Shown here: positions 4,471 to 46,419 of the stretch, in pieces | How the letters are laid out: each line of letters opens with the position of its first letter | Numbering within the stretch: the stretch's first letter is position 1 | Source: Patescibacteria group bacterium | GTDB taxonomy: Bacteria > Patescibacteriota > Patescibacteriia > UBA9934 > GWF2-40-263 | Assembly (NCBI GenBank): GCA_004297215.1 | Contig: SCUM01000002.1 | Span: 70,270 to 134,269, forward strand | Direction of reading: 5' to 3' | DNA length: 64,000 nt | Program-made: the position numbers and the translations under genes | The notes under the pieces: model-generated | The model's database searches: none | Told to the model about the DNA's origin: nothing | What the model saw: the letters and a program-made list of their open reading frames with translations, nothing else

Positions 4471-5664
<1,194 letters not shown>

Positions 5665-5793
5665 ACGCGTAATGAGGTCGAGCCCAATGGGCGAAAAGAG
5701 CTCTTTAATTAGCGAATTATTGATGTAGATGAAAGATGTGGCCAAGTATAGCAGGGCCCCCTGAACTGCGCAAGTTTGCTGGGGTCCCTGCGT

Positions 5794-6264
5794 TTATTCT
5801 ACCGGTTCGAGGTAAAACTGATCCTCATCGAAGGAGTCTTTCTTGGCTGAATTAAGGTTCATTCCAGGGCTCTTGGGGGCGTCTTTCTCCTCCTCGCCCT
5901 GATAGGCCATGAACTGGCGAAGCACGTCCTCCCGTTCGCCGTCGCTCATTTTGCCTATATCCCAGGTGTCTCCGGCCTCGTTTGCCGGTTTCATGAGGTC
6001 AAAAAGGTCCGGCGGAGGCGCATCTTCGTCCTTAGGCTGCAATGGTCGGATGTCCCGATCTTGACGTAGGCTCGGACCATCCATCCTCCCCGTCCTTTCC
6101 ACCTTTTCAGTATTTTCGACCCTTTCAACCTTTCCGGGCCCCAAAAGCCCTTCATACTGGTCCAAACCCATCACCACGAAGGCGTCCTCGCCTTCCGGAT
6201 CGGTGATAATCACCCGATCTCCGGTGCGTTTCGACAGTTCCAGGATGCGGCGGATATTCTTCAT
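5794..6264 (-). CDS. Hypothetical acidic protein (156 aa)
   Basis: Intact ORF with ordinary, non-repetitive composition. No recognisable motif. A plausible TTGACA-type promoter lies upstream on the minus strand. Confidence 0.5.
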   Translation of the reverse strand: MKNIRRILELSKRTGDRVIITDPEGEDAFVVMGLDQYEGLLGPGKVERVENTEKVERTGRMDGPSLRQDRDIRPLQPKDEDAPPPDLFDLMKPANEAGDTWDIGKMSDGEREDVLRQFMAYQGEEEKDAPKSPGMNLNSAKKDSFDEDQFYLEPVE

Positions 6265-6334
6265 AATGCGAGCATCTTACCGTTCGCATCTCCCCTGTCA
6301 ACCGACCAAATATTGGCTAACCTTGGCATAAGGG

Positions 6335-6363
6335 TTGACAAAATCCCCTCGGTATGGTATTCT
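6335..6363 (+). promoter_or_regulatory. Sigma70-like promoter: TTGACA -17 nt- TATTCT
   Basis: TTGACA at 6335-6340, a 17-nt spacer, then TATTCT at 6358-6363. The same architecture lies upstream of the tRNA-Glu (61986-62014) and tRNA-Arg (36995-37023) genes. Confidence 0.4.
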
Positions 6364-6369
6364 ACCCCT

Positions 6370-6526
6370 CGTGCTGAGTTATCTCAGGTCTGAGAGATCC
6401 TCCGAATACGAAGGAATCTACACAGGACTGGAAGAAACGACAGGAAATAGAAACATTGTTTTAGCCTGACTTACGAGCTTCCCTCTTAGACAACAAACCC
6501 CCGGCCTAGGCCGGGGGTTTTGTTTT
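6370..6526 (+). ncRNA. Candidate small non-coding RNA (orphan promoter-to-terminator unit, ~150 nt, no ATG-initiated ORF)
   Basis: The promoter at 6335-6363 and the intrinsic terminator at 6498-6526 bracket a segment that contains no ATG. It has internal hairpins, e.g. CTGAGTTATCTCAG. Confidence 0.3.
6498..6526. terminator. Bidirectional intrinsic terminator (CCCCCGGCC-TAG-GCCGGGGG + T-run), also ends recQ
   Basis: Perfect 9-bp stem with a 3-nt loop, followed by TTTTGTTTT on the plus strand. On the minus strand it lies immediately after the recQ stop codon. Confidence 0.6.
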
Positions 6527-8036
6527 ACGTCCTTGCGCGCCGCGGATGTATACGTTCAGCGAGTCGGTGCGAACGTGTGTACGTCTGGATGTGCCCGAGA
6601 AACGTCTCGCCATACTGCGCGAGCTTCCGAGAACCGACGCCGAACACCTGCGCGAGCGCGCCGAGGGTCTGCGGAAGGTAGTACGCCATCTCCTGCAGCG
6701 TCCTGTCGCCGAAGATGACGAACGGCGGGACGTTCTGCGCGTCGGCCAACGTTTTCCGTTCCCGGCGGAGGATCTGGAACAGGTCTGCCTCGAACGGAAG
6801 TCCTTCGGGAGATTTCGAGGGGGCGACGACGGCATCGATCGCCTGTTTTGGCGGAGGGACGCAGACATCGCACGAATCACACGTCGCGGATTCGCCGCGT
6901 TCACCGAAATATTCAAGAAGGAACTTGCGGCGACAGGTGCGCGTCTCGCAATACGAGATGACCTGGGCAAGTTTCTGGATCGCGAGCGCCTTTTCCGGCC
7001 CGTTCTCCATCATGTTGATGAAATAATCCTGCTTGCGCTTGTCACCATACGTGTAGAACAACACGCACTCGCTCGGGAGCCCGTCGCGGCCCGCGCGGCC
7101 GGTTTCCTGATAATACGACTCGATGGTCTTCGGCAAATCCATGTGCACGACCAGACGCACGTCGGGCTTGTCGATGCCCATGCCAAACGCGATGGTGGCG
7201 ACGATGACGGGAACCTCGTCGCGGATGAACTTGTCCTGCGTCTGCGCGCGCACGTCGCGATTCAATCCGGCATGATACGGAAGCGCCTGGAACCCGGCGC
7301 GACAGAGTTGCTCGGCGACCTCTTCCGTGTTCTTGCGGGAAAAGCAATATACGATCACCGGCTTTTCCTTATATGATTCCAAAAGCCCGACGAGCTGCCC
7401 GACCGCGTTCCTTTTTGGACGGACGGCATACCGAAGGTTCGGTCGGTTGAAACTCGACAGGAACACGGATGCATCTTCCATCCGGAGTTCCTTCAGGATG
7501 TCTTCCTTGACCCTCGGCGTGGCCGTTGCCGTAAGGGCGATTACCGGCACGCCGGGAAACACCCTCCGCAGCTCCTTCATGTTGCGGTAATCCGGCCGGA
7601 AATCGTGTCCCCACTCCGAAATGCAGTGCGCTTCGTCGATCGCGATGAGGGAGACGTTCAGATGCGACAAAAATACTTGGAACGCGGGCTGGGCCAACCG
7701 TTCCGGGGCTACGTACAGCAGCTTCAGCTCGCCTGACAGCGCACGCGCCTCCACGTCGTCTGACACGTCGCCATCCAACGTACTGTTCAGGCAGGCCGCA
7801 CTGATTCCGTTTGCCGTGAGGGCATCCACCTGGTCCTTCATGAGCGCGATGAGCGGCGAAACGACGAGGGTGATCCCTGGAAACTTGAGTGCCGGCAGCT
7901 GAAAACACAGCGACTTCCCTCCACCGGTCGGCATAAGCACCAACACGTCCTGCTTCTTAAGGACGGTGTCGATGATTTCTTCCTGCAATGGCCGAAATGC
8001 GTCGTAGCCAAAATGCGTCTTAAGCAACTCCCGCAT
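6525..8036 (-). CDS. recQ: ATP-dependent DNA helicase RecQ (503 aa, zinc-binding module present, no HRDC domain)
   Basis: RecQ N-terminus ...FGYDAFRPLQEEII..., Walker A LMPTGGGKSLCFQLPAL, DEAH-like IAIDEAHCISEWGHDFR, and a Cys cluster CDSCDVC. The start was trimmed to MRELL ('cat' at 8034-8036). Confidence 0.9.
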   Translation of the reverse strand: MRELLKTHFGYDAFRPLQEEIIDTVLKKQDVLVLMPTGGGKSLCFQLPALKFPGITLVVSPLIALMKDQVDALTANGISAACLNSTLDGDVSDDVEARALSGELKLLYVAPERLAQPAFQVFLSHLNVSLIAIDEAHCISEWGHDFRPDYRNMKELRRVFPGVPVIALTATATPRVKEDILKELRMEDASVFLSSFNRPNLRYAVRPKRNAVGQLVGLLESYKEKPVIVYCFSRKNTEEVAEQLCRAGFQALPYHAGLNRDVRAQTQDKFIRDEVPVIVATIAFGMGIDKPDVRLVVHMDLPKTIESYYQETGRAGRDGLPSECVLFYTYGDKRKQDYFINMMENGPEKALAIQKLAQVISYCETRTCRRKFLLEYFGERGESATCDSCDVCVPPPKQAIDAVVAPSKSPEGLPFEADLFQILRRERKTLADAQNVPPFVIFGDRTLQEMAYYLPQTLGALAQVFGVGSRKLAQYGETFLGHIQTYTRSHRLAERIHPRRART

Positions 8037-8140
8037 AAATAAAATTACTGGCCCGGTGAGCCAGAGTGTTTGAAAGCTTGATGAGACAAGCGTACCCGTT
8101 TTTTTCGTCGTTGTCAATCGAGATGTGTGGATATCCTGTA

Positions 8141-9142
8141 TCAGCGTAGCAGCTCCGCAACCCTTTCACTGAATTCGTCGCGATGCTTGGCGAGATACGG
8201 ATACAAGCGCGACCTTCGCTCGATGTTATCACGCATCTGGAACTGACCGCTCAGGTATTCCTTCTCGGCCCAGAGCGAAAACAACCCCTTACGGAACCCG
8301 CATTCGAACGCCAGCTCGCGTTCGAGATCGGTAAGCGCTGCTTGCTTTCGGTACGCGCCGAGATACGTCTTCACGCGATCCCAATCCAATGTTCCCCGGG
8401 CCATCCGGCAATTGAACATCACGGAACGCATCACCTCGAATCCGCGCCAGCCCCATCCGGCCTTTTCCCAGTCGAGCACAGCGGCCACCTTCCGTCCGCG
8501 CACGAGCACGTTCATGATGTGATAATCATTGTGGCAGACGCGGACCGGGAGGCGACGGAACGCTTCCTTGTCCCAGCCGCCGATCGCGACCGCGTTTTCG
8601 TGCGCGTCGAGGGAACGGGCGACCGTCTCCCGGACGACCTTCGGCTTCGACCTCAGCGAGCGCCGCATGGAGACGATTTCGGACAAGAATGATTCCGGAT
8701 TCCACGAAGCCATATCCTCGAATGCGGGCTTCTGCATTCGGAATTTGAACGTCTCGAGCGTCGCGTCGATGCGTCCAAGCATTTCTCCCATGGGCCGCAT
8801 GAGCGGCGCATTCCGATACCGTGACGGATGCGTCCCTTCGACGAAGGGGTACAGGGCGACGGCATGGCCGCCCACCTCTCCGCTTGCGACCGGCAACGGG
8901 ACCGGAATGCCCTTTCCGACGGCATGCGCCATCATCCGATGCATCTCGCGCATGGCCTTCAGCGAGACTTTCGGCCGATAAGCTTTCAAGACGTACCGTT
9001 CGCTCCCGACGCGAACGACAAGGTTCTGATTAAGAAGACCGCTCAGAAGCGGACGCATCGAAACGCGCCGTGCGGGAAACACGGCTTGAACGAATTCCTT
9101 GAGATGATCATTCGGGACAAAGGCGAGCATGGAACAAAGCAT
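8141..9142 (-). CDS. Aminoglycoside phosphotransferase (APH)/choline-kinase-like family protein kinase
   Basis: 333-aa ORF with the catalytic-loop motif VCHNDYHIMNVLV and a downstream D...DWEKAGWG, the family's HxDxxxxN...D signature. It sits between fusA and recQ. Confidence 0.8.
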   Translation of the reverse strand: MLCSMLAFVPNDHLKEFVQAVFPARRVSMRPLLSGLLNQNLVVRVGSERYVLKAYRPKVSLKAMREMHRMMAHAVGKGIPVPLPVASGEVGGHAVALYPFVEGTHPSRYRNAPLMRPMGEMLGRIDATLETFKFRMQKPAFEDMASWNPESFLSEIVSMRRSLRSKPKVVRETVARSLDAHENAVAIGGWDKEAFRRLPVRVCHNDYHIMNVLVRGRKVAAVLDWEKAGWGWRGFEVMRSVMFNCRMARGTLDWDRVKTYLGAYRKQAALTDLERELAFECGFRKGLFSLWAEKEYLSGQFQMRDNIERRSRLYPYLAKHRDEFSERVAELLR

Positions 9143-9146
9143 AACA

Positions 9147-9173
9147 AAAGGCCCCGCGATCAGCGAGGCCTTT
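9147..9173 (-). terminator. Hairpin AAAGGCC...GGCCTTT downstream of fusA
   Basis: A 7-bp stem with a 13-nt loop. On the minus strand it is followed by a U-containing run. The strength of the T-tract is moderate. Confidence 0.4.
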
Positions 9174-9183
9174 CCTCTTACGA

Positions 9184-11280
9184 TCAGGCGGCGCGACGCG
9201 TCACTCCCGAACGCTCCTCGATGATCTTCTTGCTCACGTTGCCGGGCACTTCCTCGTAGTGGTCGAATTCCATGGAGTAGCTGGCGCGGCCCTGGGTGTT
9301 GGAGCGCAGCGTGGTGACGTAGCCGAACATCTCGGCAAGCGGCACGAACGCGGTGACGATCTTCGCCCCCCCGACGCGGTCGCCCATCTCCTGGATCTGG
9401 CCGCGCTTGGCGTTCAAGTCGCCCACCACGGTGCCCATGAACTCCTCGGGCATCACCACTTCCACCTTCATCATGGGTTCAAGCAGCGAGATGCCGGCCT
9501 TCTTGCAGGCGTCCTGGAACGCCATGGACCCGGCGATCTTGAACGCCGCCTCGTTGGAGTCCACGTCGTGGTAGGAACCGTCGAACACGGTCACCTTCAC
9601 GTCGATGAGCGGGAAGCCGGCGAGCACGCCGCGGTCGGCCGCCTCCTCGGCGCCCTTGGCGATCGGCTTGATGAACTCGCGGGGGATGGCGCCGCCCTTG
9701 ATCTCCTCGACGAACTCGAACCCCTTGCCAGCCTCGTTCTTTTCCACGCGCAGCCAGCAGTGGCCGTATTGGCCGCGGCCGCCGGACTGGCGGATGTACT
9801 TCCCTTCGCTCTCGGCTTCGCCCTTGATGGACTCGCGGTAGGCCACTTGCGGCTTGCCCACGTTCGCTTCCACGTTGAACTCGCGCTTCATGCGGTCCAC
9901 GATGATGTCGAGGTGGAGCTCGCCCATGCCGGAGATGATGACCTGGTTGGTCTCCTCGTCGGTGCGCACGCGGAAGGTGGGATCTTCCTCGGCGAGCTTC
10001 TGCAGCGCCACGCCCATCTTCTCCTGGTCGGCCTTGGTCTTGGGCTCGATGGCGATGGAGATGACCGGCTCCGGGAACACGATGGACTCGAGCACGATCG
10101 GACGCTCCTGGTCGCACAGCGTGTGGCCGGTGAAGGTCTCCTTGAGGCCCACGGCCGCGGCGATCTCGCCGGCGTACACCTCGTCCACGTCCTCGCGGGT
10201 GTTGGCGTGCAGGCGCACGATGCGGCCGATGCGCTCCTTTCCGCCGGTGCTCGAGTTGAGCACGTAGGAGCCGGCGGCGATCTTGCCGGAGTACACGCGG
10301 AAGAAGGCGAGCTTGCCCACGAACGGGTCGGCGGCGATCTTGAACGCGAGCGCGGCGAACGGCTCGTCATCGGAGGCCTTGCGCTCGATGAGCTCCTCCG
10401 AATCCGGGGCGTGTCCCTTGACCGGAGGGATGTCAAGCGGGCTCGGCAGGAATTCCACCACGGCGTCGAGCACCTGCTGCACCCCCTTGTTCTTGAGCGC
10501 GGAGCCGGTGAGCACCGGGAAGATGTCATTCGCGATGGTGGCCTTGCGCAGTCCGGCCTTGAGCTCCGGGACGGGAATCTCCTCCCCGGCCAGATAGCGC
10601 TCCATGAGCGATTCGTCGGTCTCGGCGATCGCCTCGACCAGTTTCTTCCGCCACTCCTCCACCGATGCCTTCATGTCCTCCGGGCAGTCGGACACCTCGA
10701 TGTCCTTTCCGAGGTCATCCTTGAAGATGTAGGCCTTCTTGTCGAACAGGTCCACGATTCCCTGGAAATTGGATTCCGACCCGATCGGGAGCTGGATGGG
10801 GTGGGCCTTCCTCGACAGGCGGGTGTGGATGGACGCGAGGTCCTTGAAATAGTCCGCGCCGGTGCGGTCGAGCTTGTTGATGAAGCACACGCGCGGCACG
10901 GCGTAGCCGTCGGCGTAGCGCCAGTTGGTCTCGGACTGCGGCTCCACGCCGGCCACGCCGTCGAACACGACGAGCGCGCCGTCGAGCACGCGAAGGGAAC
11001 GCTTCACTTCCACGGTGAAGTCCACGTGCCCGGGGGTGTCGATGAGGTTCATCCGATGTCCCTTCCAAAAACAGGTGGTGGCGGCGGCCGTGATGGTGAT
11101 GCCGCGTTCCTGCTCCTGCGCCATCCAGTCCATGGTAGCTTCGCCCTCGTGCACCTCGCCGATCTTATGCTTTTTGCCCGTATAAAACAGGATGCGTTCG
11201 CTCGTGGTGGTCTTGCCCGCATCGATGTGGGCGATGACGCCGAAGTTGCGCGTCTTTTCCAGGGAATACTCGCGTGCCAT
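9184..11280 (-). CDS. fusA: Elongation factor G
   Basis: 698-aa ORF with [17 protein letters not shown] and the full EF-G domain order. Confidence 0.97.
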
Positions 11281-12316: not shown

Positions 12317-12375
12317 ATCGAAATAAAGATGCGCGAAGGTTAGCATGGCATCCCCGGAGCGTCAACCTATGCCCG

Positions 12376-46227: not shown

Positions 46228-46419
46228 AGGAAGGGAAAATCAATGCGCGGATGGTAACAAAGGCGTTCCCGTACGTCAACCCATCCTTTATAAAAACTTG
46301 AAAACTTGAAAACTTGAAGGACCAAAGGTCCATGAAAAGGACGAAGGGATAAAGGATGAAATATCAACCTTCATCCTTCAACCTTTCCGTCACCCTTTGG
46401 TTCTTCAAGATTTGGTTCT

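Follow-up and report, generated by a model that had tools for sequence, protein, structure and literature searches.

We analysed a 64,000-nucleotide (nt) stretch of contig SCUM01000002.1 (positions 70,270 to 134,269, forward strand; assembly GCA_004297215.1) from a Patescibacteria group bacterium close to Candidatus Uhrbacteria, whose genome was assembled from a metagenome; this stretch is here called the window. The results indicate that its positions 6368-6526 on the plus strand carry a stand-alone, structured non-coding RNA (ncRNA) gene of about 155 nt, the first member to be described of a family in Uhrbacteria-like Patescibacteria, whose product would act in trans as a scaffold; we put the probability of this reading at about 0.6. 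The sequence comparisons make it very probable that the unit is a real RNA gene under selection, while the idea that the RNA works by binding a protein through its apical hairpin is a tentative one. A preliminary description of the window had singled out an orphan unit and proposed a small RNA (sRNA) of ~150 nt, and this reading is supported, as the promoter, terminator and fold are kept in relatives and no conserved open reading frame (ORF) was found. Judged from sequence comparison, the RNA is independently promoted and terminated, non-coding and structurally constrained, with a sequence-specific hairpin as its most constrained part.

Promoter, terminator and predicted transcript

The RNA promoter is of the sigma-70 type, with 10/12 matches (Table 1). 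The TTGACA-17-TATTCT site reported in the preliminary description is present, and its -10 hexamer (6358-6363) is extended by a TG at 6355-6356, one base upstream. Its layout, as had been claimed, is that of the window's tRNA promoters, which both read TTGACG-17-TAT(A/T)(T/C)T: TTGACG-17-TATATT precedes tRNA-Arg and TTGACG-17-TATTCT precedes tRNA-Glu, each ending 12-13 nt before the mature tRNA. This shared promoter class suggests an abundant, stable RNA. The 2-kb region around the unit (5500-7500) contained seven promoter-like sites against 0.7 expected, and the strict pattern TTGAC-N15-TGNTANNNT had three matches in the 64-kb window, whereas 100 shuffles gave none. The other two exact matches to this pattern lie at 12337-12365 (-) and 46251-46279 (-).

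We found a promoter of the form TTGAC(A/G/T)-N17-TGnTAnnnT in 22 related loci and in L010 (family loci are cited by L numbers), 86-208 nt upstream of the conserved core, and the conservation on which the preliminary description had made the promoter depend is thus present. The sole member with enough 5' flank but no promoter, L028, looks 5'-truncated. Throughout the family the 5' end consists of 5-7 pyrimidine-rich bases after the -10 hexamer followed by C(U/C)(U/C)GUGC, typically CUUGUGC.

The intrinsic terminator predicted ~150 nt downstream was also found; its stem (6495-6520) has 11 pairs, eight of them G-C, a CUAG loop and a T-run to 6526. All full-length members end in a G+C-rich hairpin with a T-run, whose sequence differs by member, with double changes in both subfamily alignments (A6 and A4, below). 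The hairpin also follows the stop codon of recQ (6525-6527, minus strand), so the terminator is bidirectional in the window. The proposal that it might serve only recQ was refuted, as it is kept where recQ is not adjacent (L002, L006, L007, L024 and others); the part of that proposal that stands is that in the window it ends recQ as well. A lax scan for terminators was not enriched (2 found against 2.4 expected in shuffles); at this chance level the count is no evidence, and it is the strength and conservation of the RNA terminator hairpin that count. A candidate c-di-GMP-I-UAU riboswitch (RF03168) at 6485-6561 (-) scored 30.8 bits (gathering score 65.9; E = 4e-4 in the 2-kb search) and was rejected, since the terminator hairpin together with the recQ 3' end accounts for the match. 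The G+C content of the RNA interval is 45-48%, against ~60-65% in the flanks, in agreement with the lower value first noticed.

Collection and conservation of the family

Family loci were recovered by nhmmer and covariance model searches and by a sequence pattern on the most conserved stretch, ACAGGANNNAGNAACAYTGN{2,7}GCCTGA, which was scanned against large collections. About 24 distinct loci were obtained, ranging from 141 nt (L019) to ~335 nt (L010). The pattern yielded 10 loci in GTDB species genomes, labelled Uhrbacteria or Patescibacteria apart from metagenome-assembled genomes (MAGs) with evidently misleading titles, and 15 loci in JGI metagenomes. With the covariance model, R1, typical members scored 57-75 bits; the chance pattern matches L027 and L030, which have neither promoter nor terminator, scored 21-24 bits. 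R1 also recovered the divergent L010/L011, missed by the pattern (40.9 bits, E = 4e-8). The members obtained independently of the pattern are those of the window, L002, L006, L007, L008 and L012 (by synteny) and L010 (by covariance model); 6/7 match the pattern exactly, and the core of L010 differs from it at three positions.

Over ~260 nt, identity of the unit with L006 and with the contig from Uhrbacteria (L002-L005) is 77-79%. In the same genomes the RNA segment is 74-77% identical, against 68-72% for the DNA and 63-70% for the protein of the adjacent gene, which we call hyp156. According to MAG record names, the host genomes range from ~41 to 63% G+C. The retention of promoter, terminator, pseudoknot and near-unchanging hairpin across genomes of such different composition is a strong sign of an important, lineage-specific function.

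Several third-party annotation (TPA) MAGs titled 'uncultured Gammaproteobacteria' (L015, L020, L021 and L023 are listed) carry a locus of the candidate phyla radiation (CPR) type, so these titles are unreliable. L019 (JBDRGA010000023.1) is a 2.3-kb 'Woesearchaeota archaeon' contig; its RNA is the same as that of the Patescibacteria contig L016 (JBDRLV010000042.1) from the same study, so L019 is probably mis-binned.

A phage or plasmid origin was rejected. The phage collection gave no blastn match to the RNA, the sole match of the plasmid search covered the terminator alone, and all 17 pattern matches in IMG/VR scored at most 22 bits with the covariance model, like the known chance matches.

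Fold and comparative support

The predicted fold consists of an arm held by two crossing helices (Table 1). Family-wide, the 5'-terminal helix P1 pairs a 5' CUUGUGC with a GCACA(A/G)G that directly precedes the core arm; in L012 it reads CUUCUGU/ACAGAAG, which amounts to two double changes, and in L021, L006, L002 and L020 the changes are compatible with wobble pairs. The long-range helix Px has 6-11 base pairs and a highly variable sequence. Its 5' strand occurs as GUCUGAGAG, UCUGGGAG, GUCUCUGAG, ACGUCUGAG, ACAUCUGAA, AUAUCUGGAU, GUUUGAGAC, GUCGAAAG and GAUUCA, and the complete helix is UCUGGGAG/CUCCCAGA in L002 and CUCUGGGAG/CUCCCAGAG in L006. Because the 3' strand of P1 lies between the two strands of Px, the helices cross and form a pseudoknot. 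P3 varies as GAGAG/CUCUC, CGAAG/CUUCG, GAGGUU/AAUCUC and GAAGA/UCUUC. In the core hairpin, P4 (CAGG/CCUG) is invariant and closes a loop of 19-24 nt, A-nnn-AG-n-AACAYUG-n(2-7)-G, with an A flanking both sides (alignment A5). The periphery is free to vary: the internal stem-loop that had been noticed in the window, H1, is replaced by other hairpins in other subfamilies, H2 is absent from subfamily B, and insertions occur in L010 and L017.

We tested the two crossing helices by taking the best ungapped helix between fixed, homology-anchored windows and comparing it with 2000 shuffles of the 3' window in 13 sequences. The combined p was 1.5e-10 for Px and 7.5e-8 for P1 (n = 13 sequences), values that are optimistic because the sequences are related and their independence is overstated. 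In the natural MAFFT alignment A6 (subfamily B, seven full-length members), 92.8% of cells were paired, against 27-43% with the partner slid, and there were 10 double-change pairs, against 4.2 ± 1.4 in shuffles (0/500 shuffles reached 10); three of these pairs were in Px, and P1 had 100% of cells paired. The corresponding alignment A4 (subfamily A including the window, five members) had 87.1% of cells paired, against 29-53% when slid, and six double-change pairs, a number reached by 16/500 shuffles.

Single-sequence minimum free energy (MFE) folds contained P3 and P4 in 6/6 members tested. They picked Px in the window, L002, L018 and L012 and P1 in L007 and L020, an alternation that is expected if both helices exist and a nested-only algorithm has to drop one of them. 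From a plain MAFFT alignment of the core domain, RNAalifold recovered P4 alone, as the flanks were out of register.

Table 1. Positions of the RNA unit, its predicted helices and its divergent neighbour in the window.
Feature	Positions	Strand	Remarks
hyp156 (156 aa)	5794-6264	-	Syntenic neighbour; Phd/YefM-like N-terminus, acidic tail ending EEQFYLEPVE; tuf is next
Divergent hyp156 promoter, TTGACA-16-TAAGAT	6274-6301	-	Kept in close relatives
RNA promoter	6335-6363	+	-35 TTGACA 6335-6340, 17-nt spacer, extended -10 TGgTATTCT 6355-6363
Predicted transcript, ~155-159 nt	6368-6526	+	Start inferred 5-8 nt after the -10 hexamer; end in the T-run
P1, 5' strand CCU[C]GUG	6367-6373	+	Pairs with 6421-6426
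Variable hairpin H1, CUGAG-UUAU-CUCAG	6374-6387	+	Seen in MFE folds; 84% of cells paired and 2 double-change pairs in A4
Px, 5' strand GUCUGAGAG	6388-6396	+	Pairs with 6483-6491
Variable hairpin H2, UCCUCCG-AAUA-CGAAGGA	6398-6415	+	Absent in subfamily B
P1, 3' strand CACAGG	6421-6426	+	Inside the span enclosed by Px
P3, GGAAG/CUUCC	6430-6434 with 6478-6482	+	Purine/pyrimidine helix
Core hairpin	6440-6469	+	A-CAGG (P4 6441-6444), 20-nt loop A-AAU-AG-A-AACAUUG-UUUUA-G, CCUG-A (P4 6465-6468)
Px, 3' strand CUCUUAGAC	6483-6491	+	Best complement, 12-16 nt after the core in 10/13 members tested
Intrinsic terminator, AAACCCCCGGCC-UAGG-CCGGGGGUUU + UGUUUU	6495-6526	+	Bidirectional here; also ends recQ on the minus strand

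Structural variants

Two-module members of ~280 nt were found at L032:848-1131 (-), L033:4760-5044 (+) and L038:2514-2793 (-). All three carry a complete extra arm, with closing helix, P3, P4 and loop, inserted inside P1. The member at L010:4513-4848 (-), of ~335 nt, has a ~225-nt insertion between the P1 strands and a variant core, ACAGGAAGAAACAACAUGUUACGCCUGA. The two core modules of L032, L033 and L038, together with the insertion of L010 inside P1, indicate that the functional unit is the P3-P4 arm, and the duplication of a self-contained arm with an invariant loop is as expected of a binding module. A 68-aa ORF called on the opposite strand over part of the L010 RNA is probably spurious.

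L028:11700-11920 (+) has an intact core, Px 3' strand and terminator, and its promoter and P1 5' strand are replaced by unrelated G+C-rich sequence; rearrangement or decay of this copy, or a chimeric assembly, could account for it. Compared with L015 and L039, its close relatives, L017:6902-7130 (-) has an extra 36-nt G+C-rich hairpin within the Px 3' strand. In the 5' variable region of subfamily B (about nt 33-80; L015, L017, L024, L035 and L039), GUGAUGA is followed ~35 nt later by CUGA; by eye only, the two look like boxes C and D, and a kink-turn might result.

Proposed function and the evidence weighed

In the mechanism that we propose, the sigma-70-type extended -10 promoter, built like the tRNA promoters of the window, would drive transcription and the intrinsic terminator would end the RNA. 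P1 and Px would cross to hold the arm of P3, internal loop and P4; the pseudoknot and terminator would protect the RNA ends and present the hairpin. The RNA would then act in trans as a stable scaffold with the apical hairpin as its functional site, most probably for a protein, which would make it a component of a ribonucleoprotein (RNP) or a protein decoy. Protein binding is favoured over seed-type pairing by the duplicated arm, the invariant loop and the lack of any complementarity that stands out between the loop and the 50 gene starts compared with it.

Several points weigh against the proposal of a structured, trans-acting scaffold. Ascertainment explains part of the core's invariance, since most members were gathered with a pattern drawn from it, and P4 and its loop never vary and therefore contribute no covariation. 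The relatedness of the 13 sequences behind the combined p-values has been mentioned. P1 is weak in the window member, with 3 to 6 pairs depending on the start site; GUG/CAC is certain, and the pairs further out depend on an early start and on bulging of C6370. The folding-energy z without the terminator was -1.1 to -2.1, with L007 at +0.5, which is only mildly better than shuffles; with scores so modest, the case for structure is made by the comparative evidence and not by thermodynamics. Both RNA ends were inferred from the positions of promoter and terminator, the search for mRNA targets covered 50 genes only, and the one recurrent neighbour, hyp156, is missing near the two-module members.

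Alternative readings

The alternative that survives best, though we consider it unlikely, is a base-pairing sRNA, in which the single-stranded AACAYUG loop would be a seed for mRNA 5'-CARUGUU-3', a sequence that can contain a start codon, and the rest a scaffold. A stand-alone unit with its own promoter and terminator and a conserved, exposed loop sequence would suit such an sRNA. So would its place divergent from a gene with a Phd/YefM-like, putatively DNA-binding N-terminus, as in many bacterial cases, such as oxyS-oxyR and gcvB-gcvA, an sRNA gene and a regulator gene diverge from each other. However, when the apical loop was compared with 50 window gene starts by RNAduplex, nothing rose above shuffles (best -11.3 kcal/mol, shuffle mean -12.4). 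The covarying pseudoknot, the invariant helix flanking the loop and the arm duplication are also more elaborate than in typical seed-type sRNAs, and the palindromes between the two promoters are conserved only among close relatives.

A second alternative, which we regard as quite improbable, is a housekeeping RNA, 6S or the signal recognition particle (SRP, 4.5S) RNA, so divergent in CPR bacteria that Rfam misses it. This reading is consistent with the size range (141-335 nt), with the strong promoter, which resembles those of the tRNAs, and with a copy number that appears to be one. Neither the 64-kb window nor 146 kb from related loci gave a 6S, SRP, transfer-messenger RNA or RNase P match; but the sequence searched is a small part of each genome, so missing canonical genes say little. 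Direct searches of the 2-kb region (E<=10), of seven other members (E<=1) and of the whole window (gathering score) gave no match to the 6S models or to the small and large SRP models. The RNA ends form no rod with a central bubble, since the 5' end pairs internally and crosses Px, and a helix 8 with its GNRA cap and its symmetric and asymmetric loops is lacking. The 6S and SRP families are not known to carry a tandemly duplicated core or insertions of more than 200 nt.

The wider search of Rfam 15 gave no match at threshold to the RNA in the 2-kb region (E<=10) or in the seven other members (E<=1), and at gathering score the whole window and the 146 kb of related loci gave no family match except tRNAs. 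This bears out the statement of the preliminary description that, by eye, neither 6S nor SRP matched. The sub-threshold matches were driven by the terminator (c-di-GMP-I-UAU, the best, then the rnk leader and sX6). Likenesses seen by eye to the 790-loop of 16S h24 (ACAGGAUUAGAUACCCUG), the 16S 3' end (GAAGUCGUAACAAGG), the RNase P CR-V region, CsrA sites and k-turn/T-loop motifs were considered and dropped, because the matching positions vary in the family or the spacing differs.

A cis-acting element, either a riboswitch or attenuator leader or regulatory DNA of the divergent hyp156-tuf promoter, is very improbable, and the orientation of the genes refutes it for the most part. A pseudoknot of aptamer-like build with a terminator behind it, and with tandem modules in some members, does resemble riboswitch architecture; a same-strand ORF follows the terminator in L007, L029 and L006, and the promoter region in common with hyp156 is conserved. 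But the next gene is convergent in the window and in at least nine other loci (L002, L017, L018, L020, L021, L024, L033, L034 and L036), in keeping with the original view that the unit is not a 5' leader. The same-strand ORFs share no family (two have no Pfam match and the third a weak DUF7310 match), and the neighbours are mixed: APH, recQ, Bro-N, AAA ATPase, aminotransferase, lumazine synthase, Maf and dCTP deaminase. As for regulatory DNA of hyp156, conservation and compensatory changes reach 160 nt from its promoter, and in some loci 1-4 kb separate the RNA from hyp156, while in others hyp156 is missing.

Less probable still is a small protein encoded in the interval. The window does contain a 32-codon GTG ORF at 6371-6469, part of a 44-aa TTG ORF at 6335-6469, but it is not conserved and has neither an ATG nor a Shine-Dalgarno sequence; the absence of any ATG from the unit, claimed before, holds for the whole of 6364-6526. 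Five one- or two-base indels between the window and L002 and L006 break its frame, and across 21 members the longest ORFs, of 7-42 aa, differ in frame and are unrelated in sequence. Finally, chance adjacency of promoter-like hexamers and a recQ terminator with nothing functional between them could appeal to the shuffle-like frequency of lax terminator hairpins and to the recQ stop codon next to the terminator, but is practically dismissed by conservation of the whole unit with covariation in ~24 loci, many without an adjacent recQ.

Genomic neighbourhood and the divergent gene hyp156

Both genes beside the RNA are on the minus strand, as the preliminary description had stated: hyp156 on one side and recQ (6525-8117, RecQ helicase) on the other. 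The order on the minus strand is fusA, an APH-family kinase, recQ, the RNA (on the plus strand), hyp156, tuf, rpsJ, rplC and onward, which places the RNA unit inside an interrupted str/S10 region. In the fusA-tuf interval (window 4471-11280 (-); L002, L010, L012, L020 and L034), str/S10 is broken by a variable gene set (an APH-type kinase, recQ, Bro-N, an AAA ATPase, an aminotransferase and lumazine synthase). The interval, home of the RNA gene, looks like a hotspot of insertion or rearrangement. On the Uhrbacteria contig (L002) a Bro-N gene stands between the RNA terminator and recQ, and L006 has neither recQ nor APH. The RNA homologue of L007 lies 3 kb from hyp156 and adjoins an aminotransferase gene; in L007, L024 and L029 the RNA occurs in other contexts, kilobases away. 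In L033 the RNA lies between Maf and dCTP deaminase-like genes, and L032, L033 and L038 gave no hyp156 or tuf match.

The hyp156 protein is identical to NCBI TAK03311.1, which comes from a 'Patescibacteria group bacterium' MAG, and its nearest named relative is from Candidatus Uhrbacteria RIFCSPHIGHO2_01_FULL_63_20. It is annotated as a Phd/YefM antitoxin, and its Pfam match is sub-threshold (24.9 bits against a cutoff of 29.8); NCBIfam and PDB gave no sequence match, and no toxin partner gene is evident. The family is lineage-specific and always stands just upstream of tuf (window; L002, L006-L012, L018, L021, L024 and L036). Its members have a conserved N-terminus of ~42 aa, a middle motif D(I/L)WDxMKPA..G.TWD..K(M/L), a variable acidic linker and an invariant C-terminal EEQFYLEP(V/I)E, and the largest part of the protein looks disordered. 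Between the -10 hexamer of the hyp156 promoter and the ATG at 6264 there are ~9 nt and no Shine-Dalgarno sequence (6262-6301 (-)), so the hyp156 mRNA is probably leaderless or nearly so.

The -35 boxes of the RNA and hyp156 promoters stand back to back, 33 nt apart. The palindromes CCAAATATTGG and CCTTGGCATAAGG lie in these 33 nt; a conserved operator between the divergent promoters was rejected, as both are kept only in close relatives. hyp156 is the only recurrent genomic neighbour of the RNA and is usually transcribed divergently from it. It could be a regulator or partner of the RNA. The pairing is broken in several genomes, with the RNA at a distance from hyp156 or without it, and the two may be linked only in that both reside in the fusA-tuf region.

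Comparison with known RNAs

We found no description of this RNA family in the full-text literature, nor any paper on CPR ncRNAs in the literature searched. The family and fold appear to be new, with no match in Rfam 15 or that literature. Lineage-restricted, stand-alone structured ncRNAs as a kind do have precedents. The raiA motif RNA and OLE RNA are orphan structured bacterial ncRNAs that emerged from comparative genomics in the motif surveys of Breaker and Weinberg. Like them, the present family is stand-alone and confined to one lineage, with covarying helices and a pseudoknot, conserved loop nucleotides and variable peripheral hairpins. It differs in its own consensus promoter and terminator and in its Patescibacteria hosts, and it has no similarity to any Rfam 15 family, those motifs included; it is also smaller than OLE and is not associated with a raiA gene or with genes for OLE-associated proteins.

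6S RNA mimics an open promoter and binds RNA polymerase. The present RNA is similar to 6S (RF00013 and related) in size, in being non-coding and probably abundant, and in its strong housekeeping-type promoter. It has, in contrast, no rod, closing stem or central bubble; its 3' end is a separate terminator hairpin and its 5' end is part of a pseudoknot, its conserved part is a sequence-specific hairpin loop, and 6S covariance models do not match it. Compared with the SRP (4.5S) RNA, it has an apical loop of ~20 nt with AACAYUG and not a GNRA tetraloop.

The CsrB/RsmY/RsmZ RNAs share with the family a duplicable hairpin module with A-CAGGA, as seen in the two-module variants, and by analogy this suggests a protein-binding unit of changeable copy number. 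Those RNAs have 5-20 modules, whereas the family has 1-2; its GGA is paired inside P4 and not in the hairpin loop, and AACAYUG is unrelated to the CsrA consensus. The pairs oxyS-oxyR, gcvB-gcvA and sgrS-sgrR resemble the RNA and hyp156 in their divergent arrangement, here with back-to-back promoters and palindromes between them. The difference is that hyp156 falls below the Pfam threshold, the palindromes are confined to close relatives and the pairing is broken in several genomes.

Significance

Bacteria of the CPR account for a large part of bacterial diversity; their genomes are very small, and hardly any of them have been cultured. The RNA could be a CPR-specific RNA of housekeeping grade with a new pseudoknotted fold, a subunit or antagonist of a protein tied to the translation-factor region, with hyp156 as a candidate, although we regard this as doubtful. 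If it is true, the RNA and its protein would form a new RNP or regulatory circuit in minimal-genome bacteria, and not a variant of 6S, SRP, Csr or seed-type sRNAs. The covariance model could be used to annotate the RNA family in thousands of MAGs, the conserved hairpin could serve as bait for a partner, and intergenic promoter-terminator pairs in CPR genomes would be worth mining.

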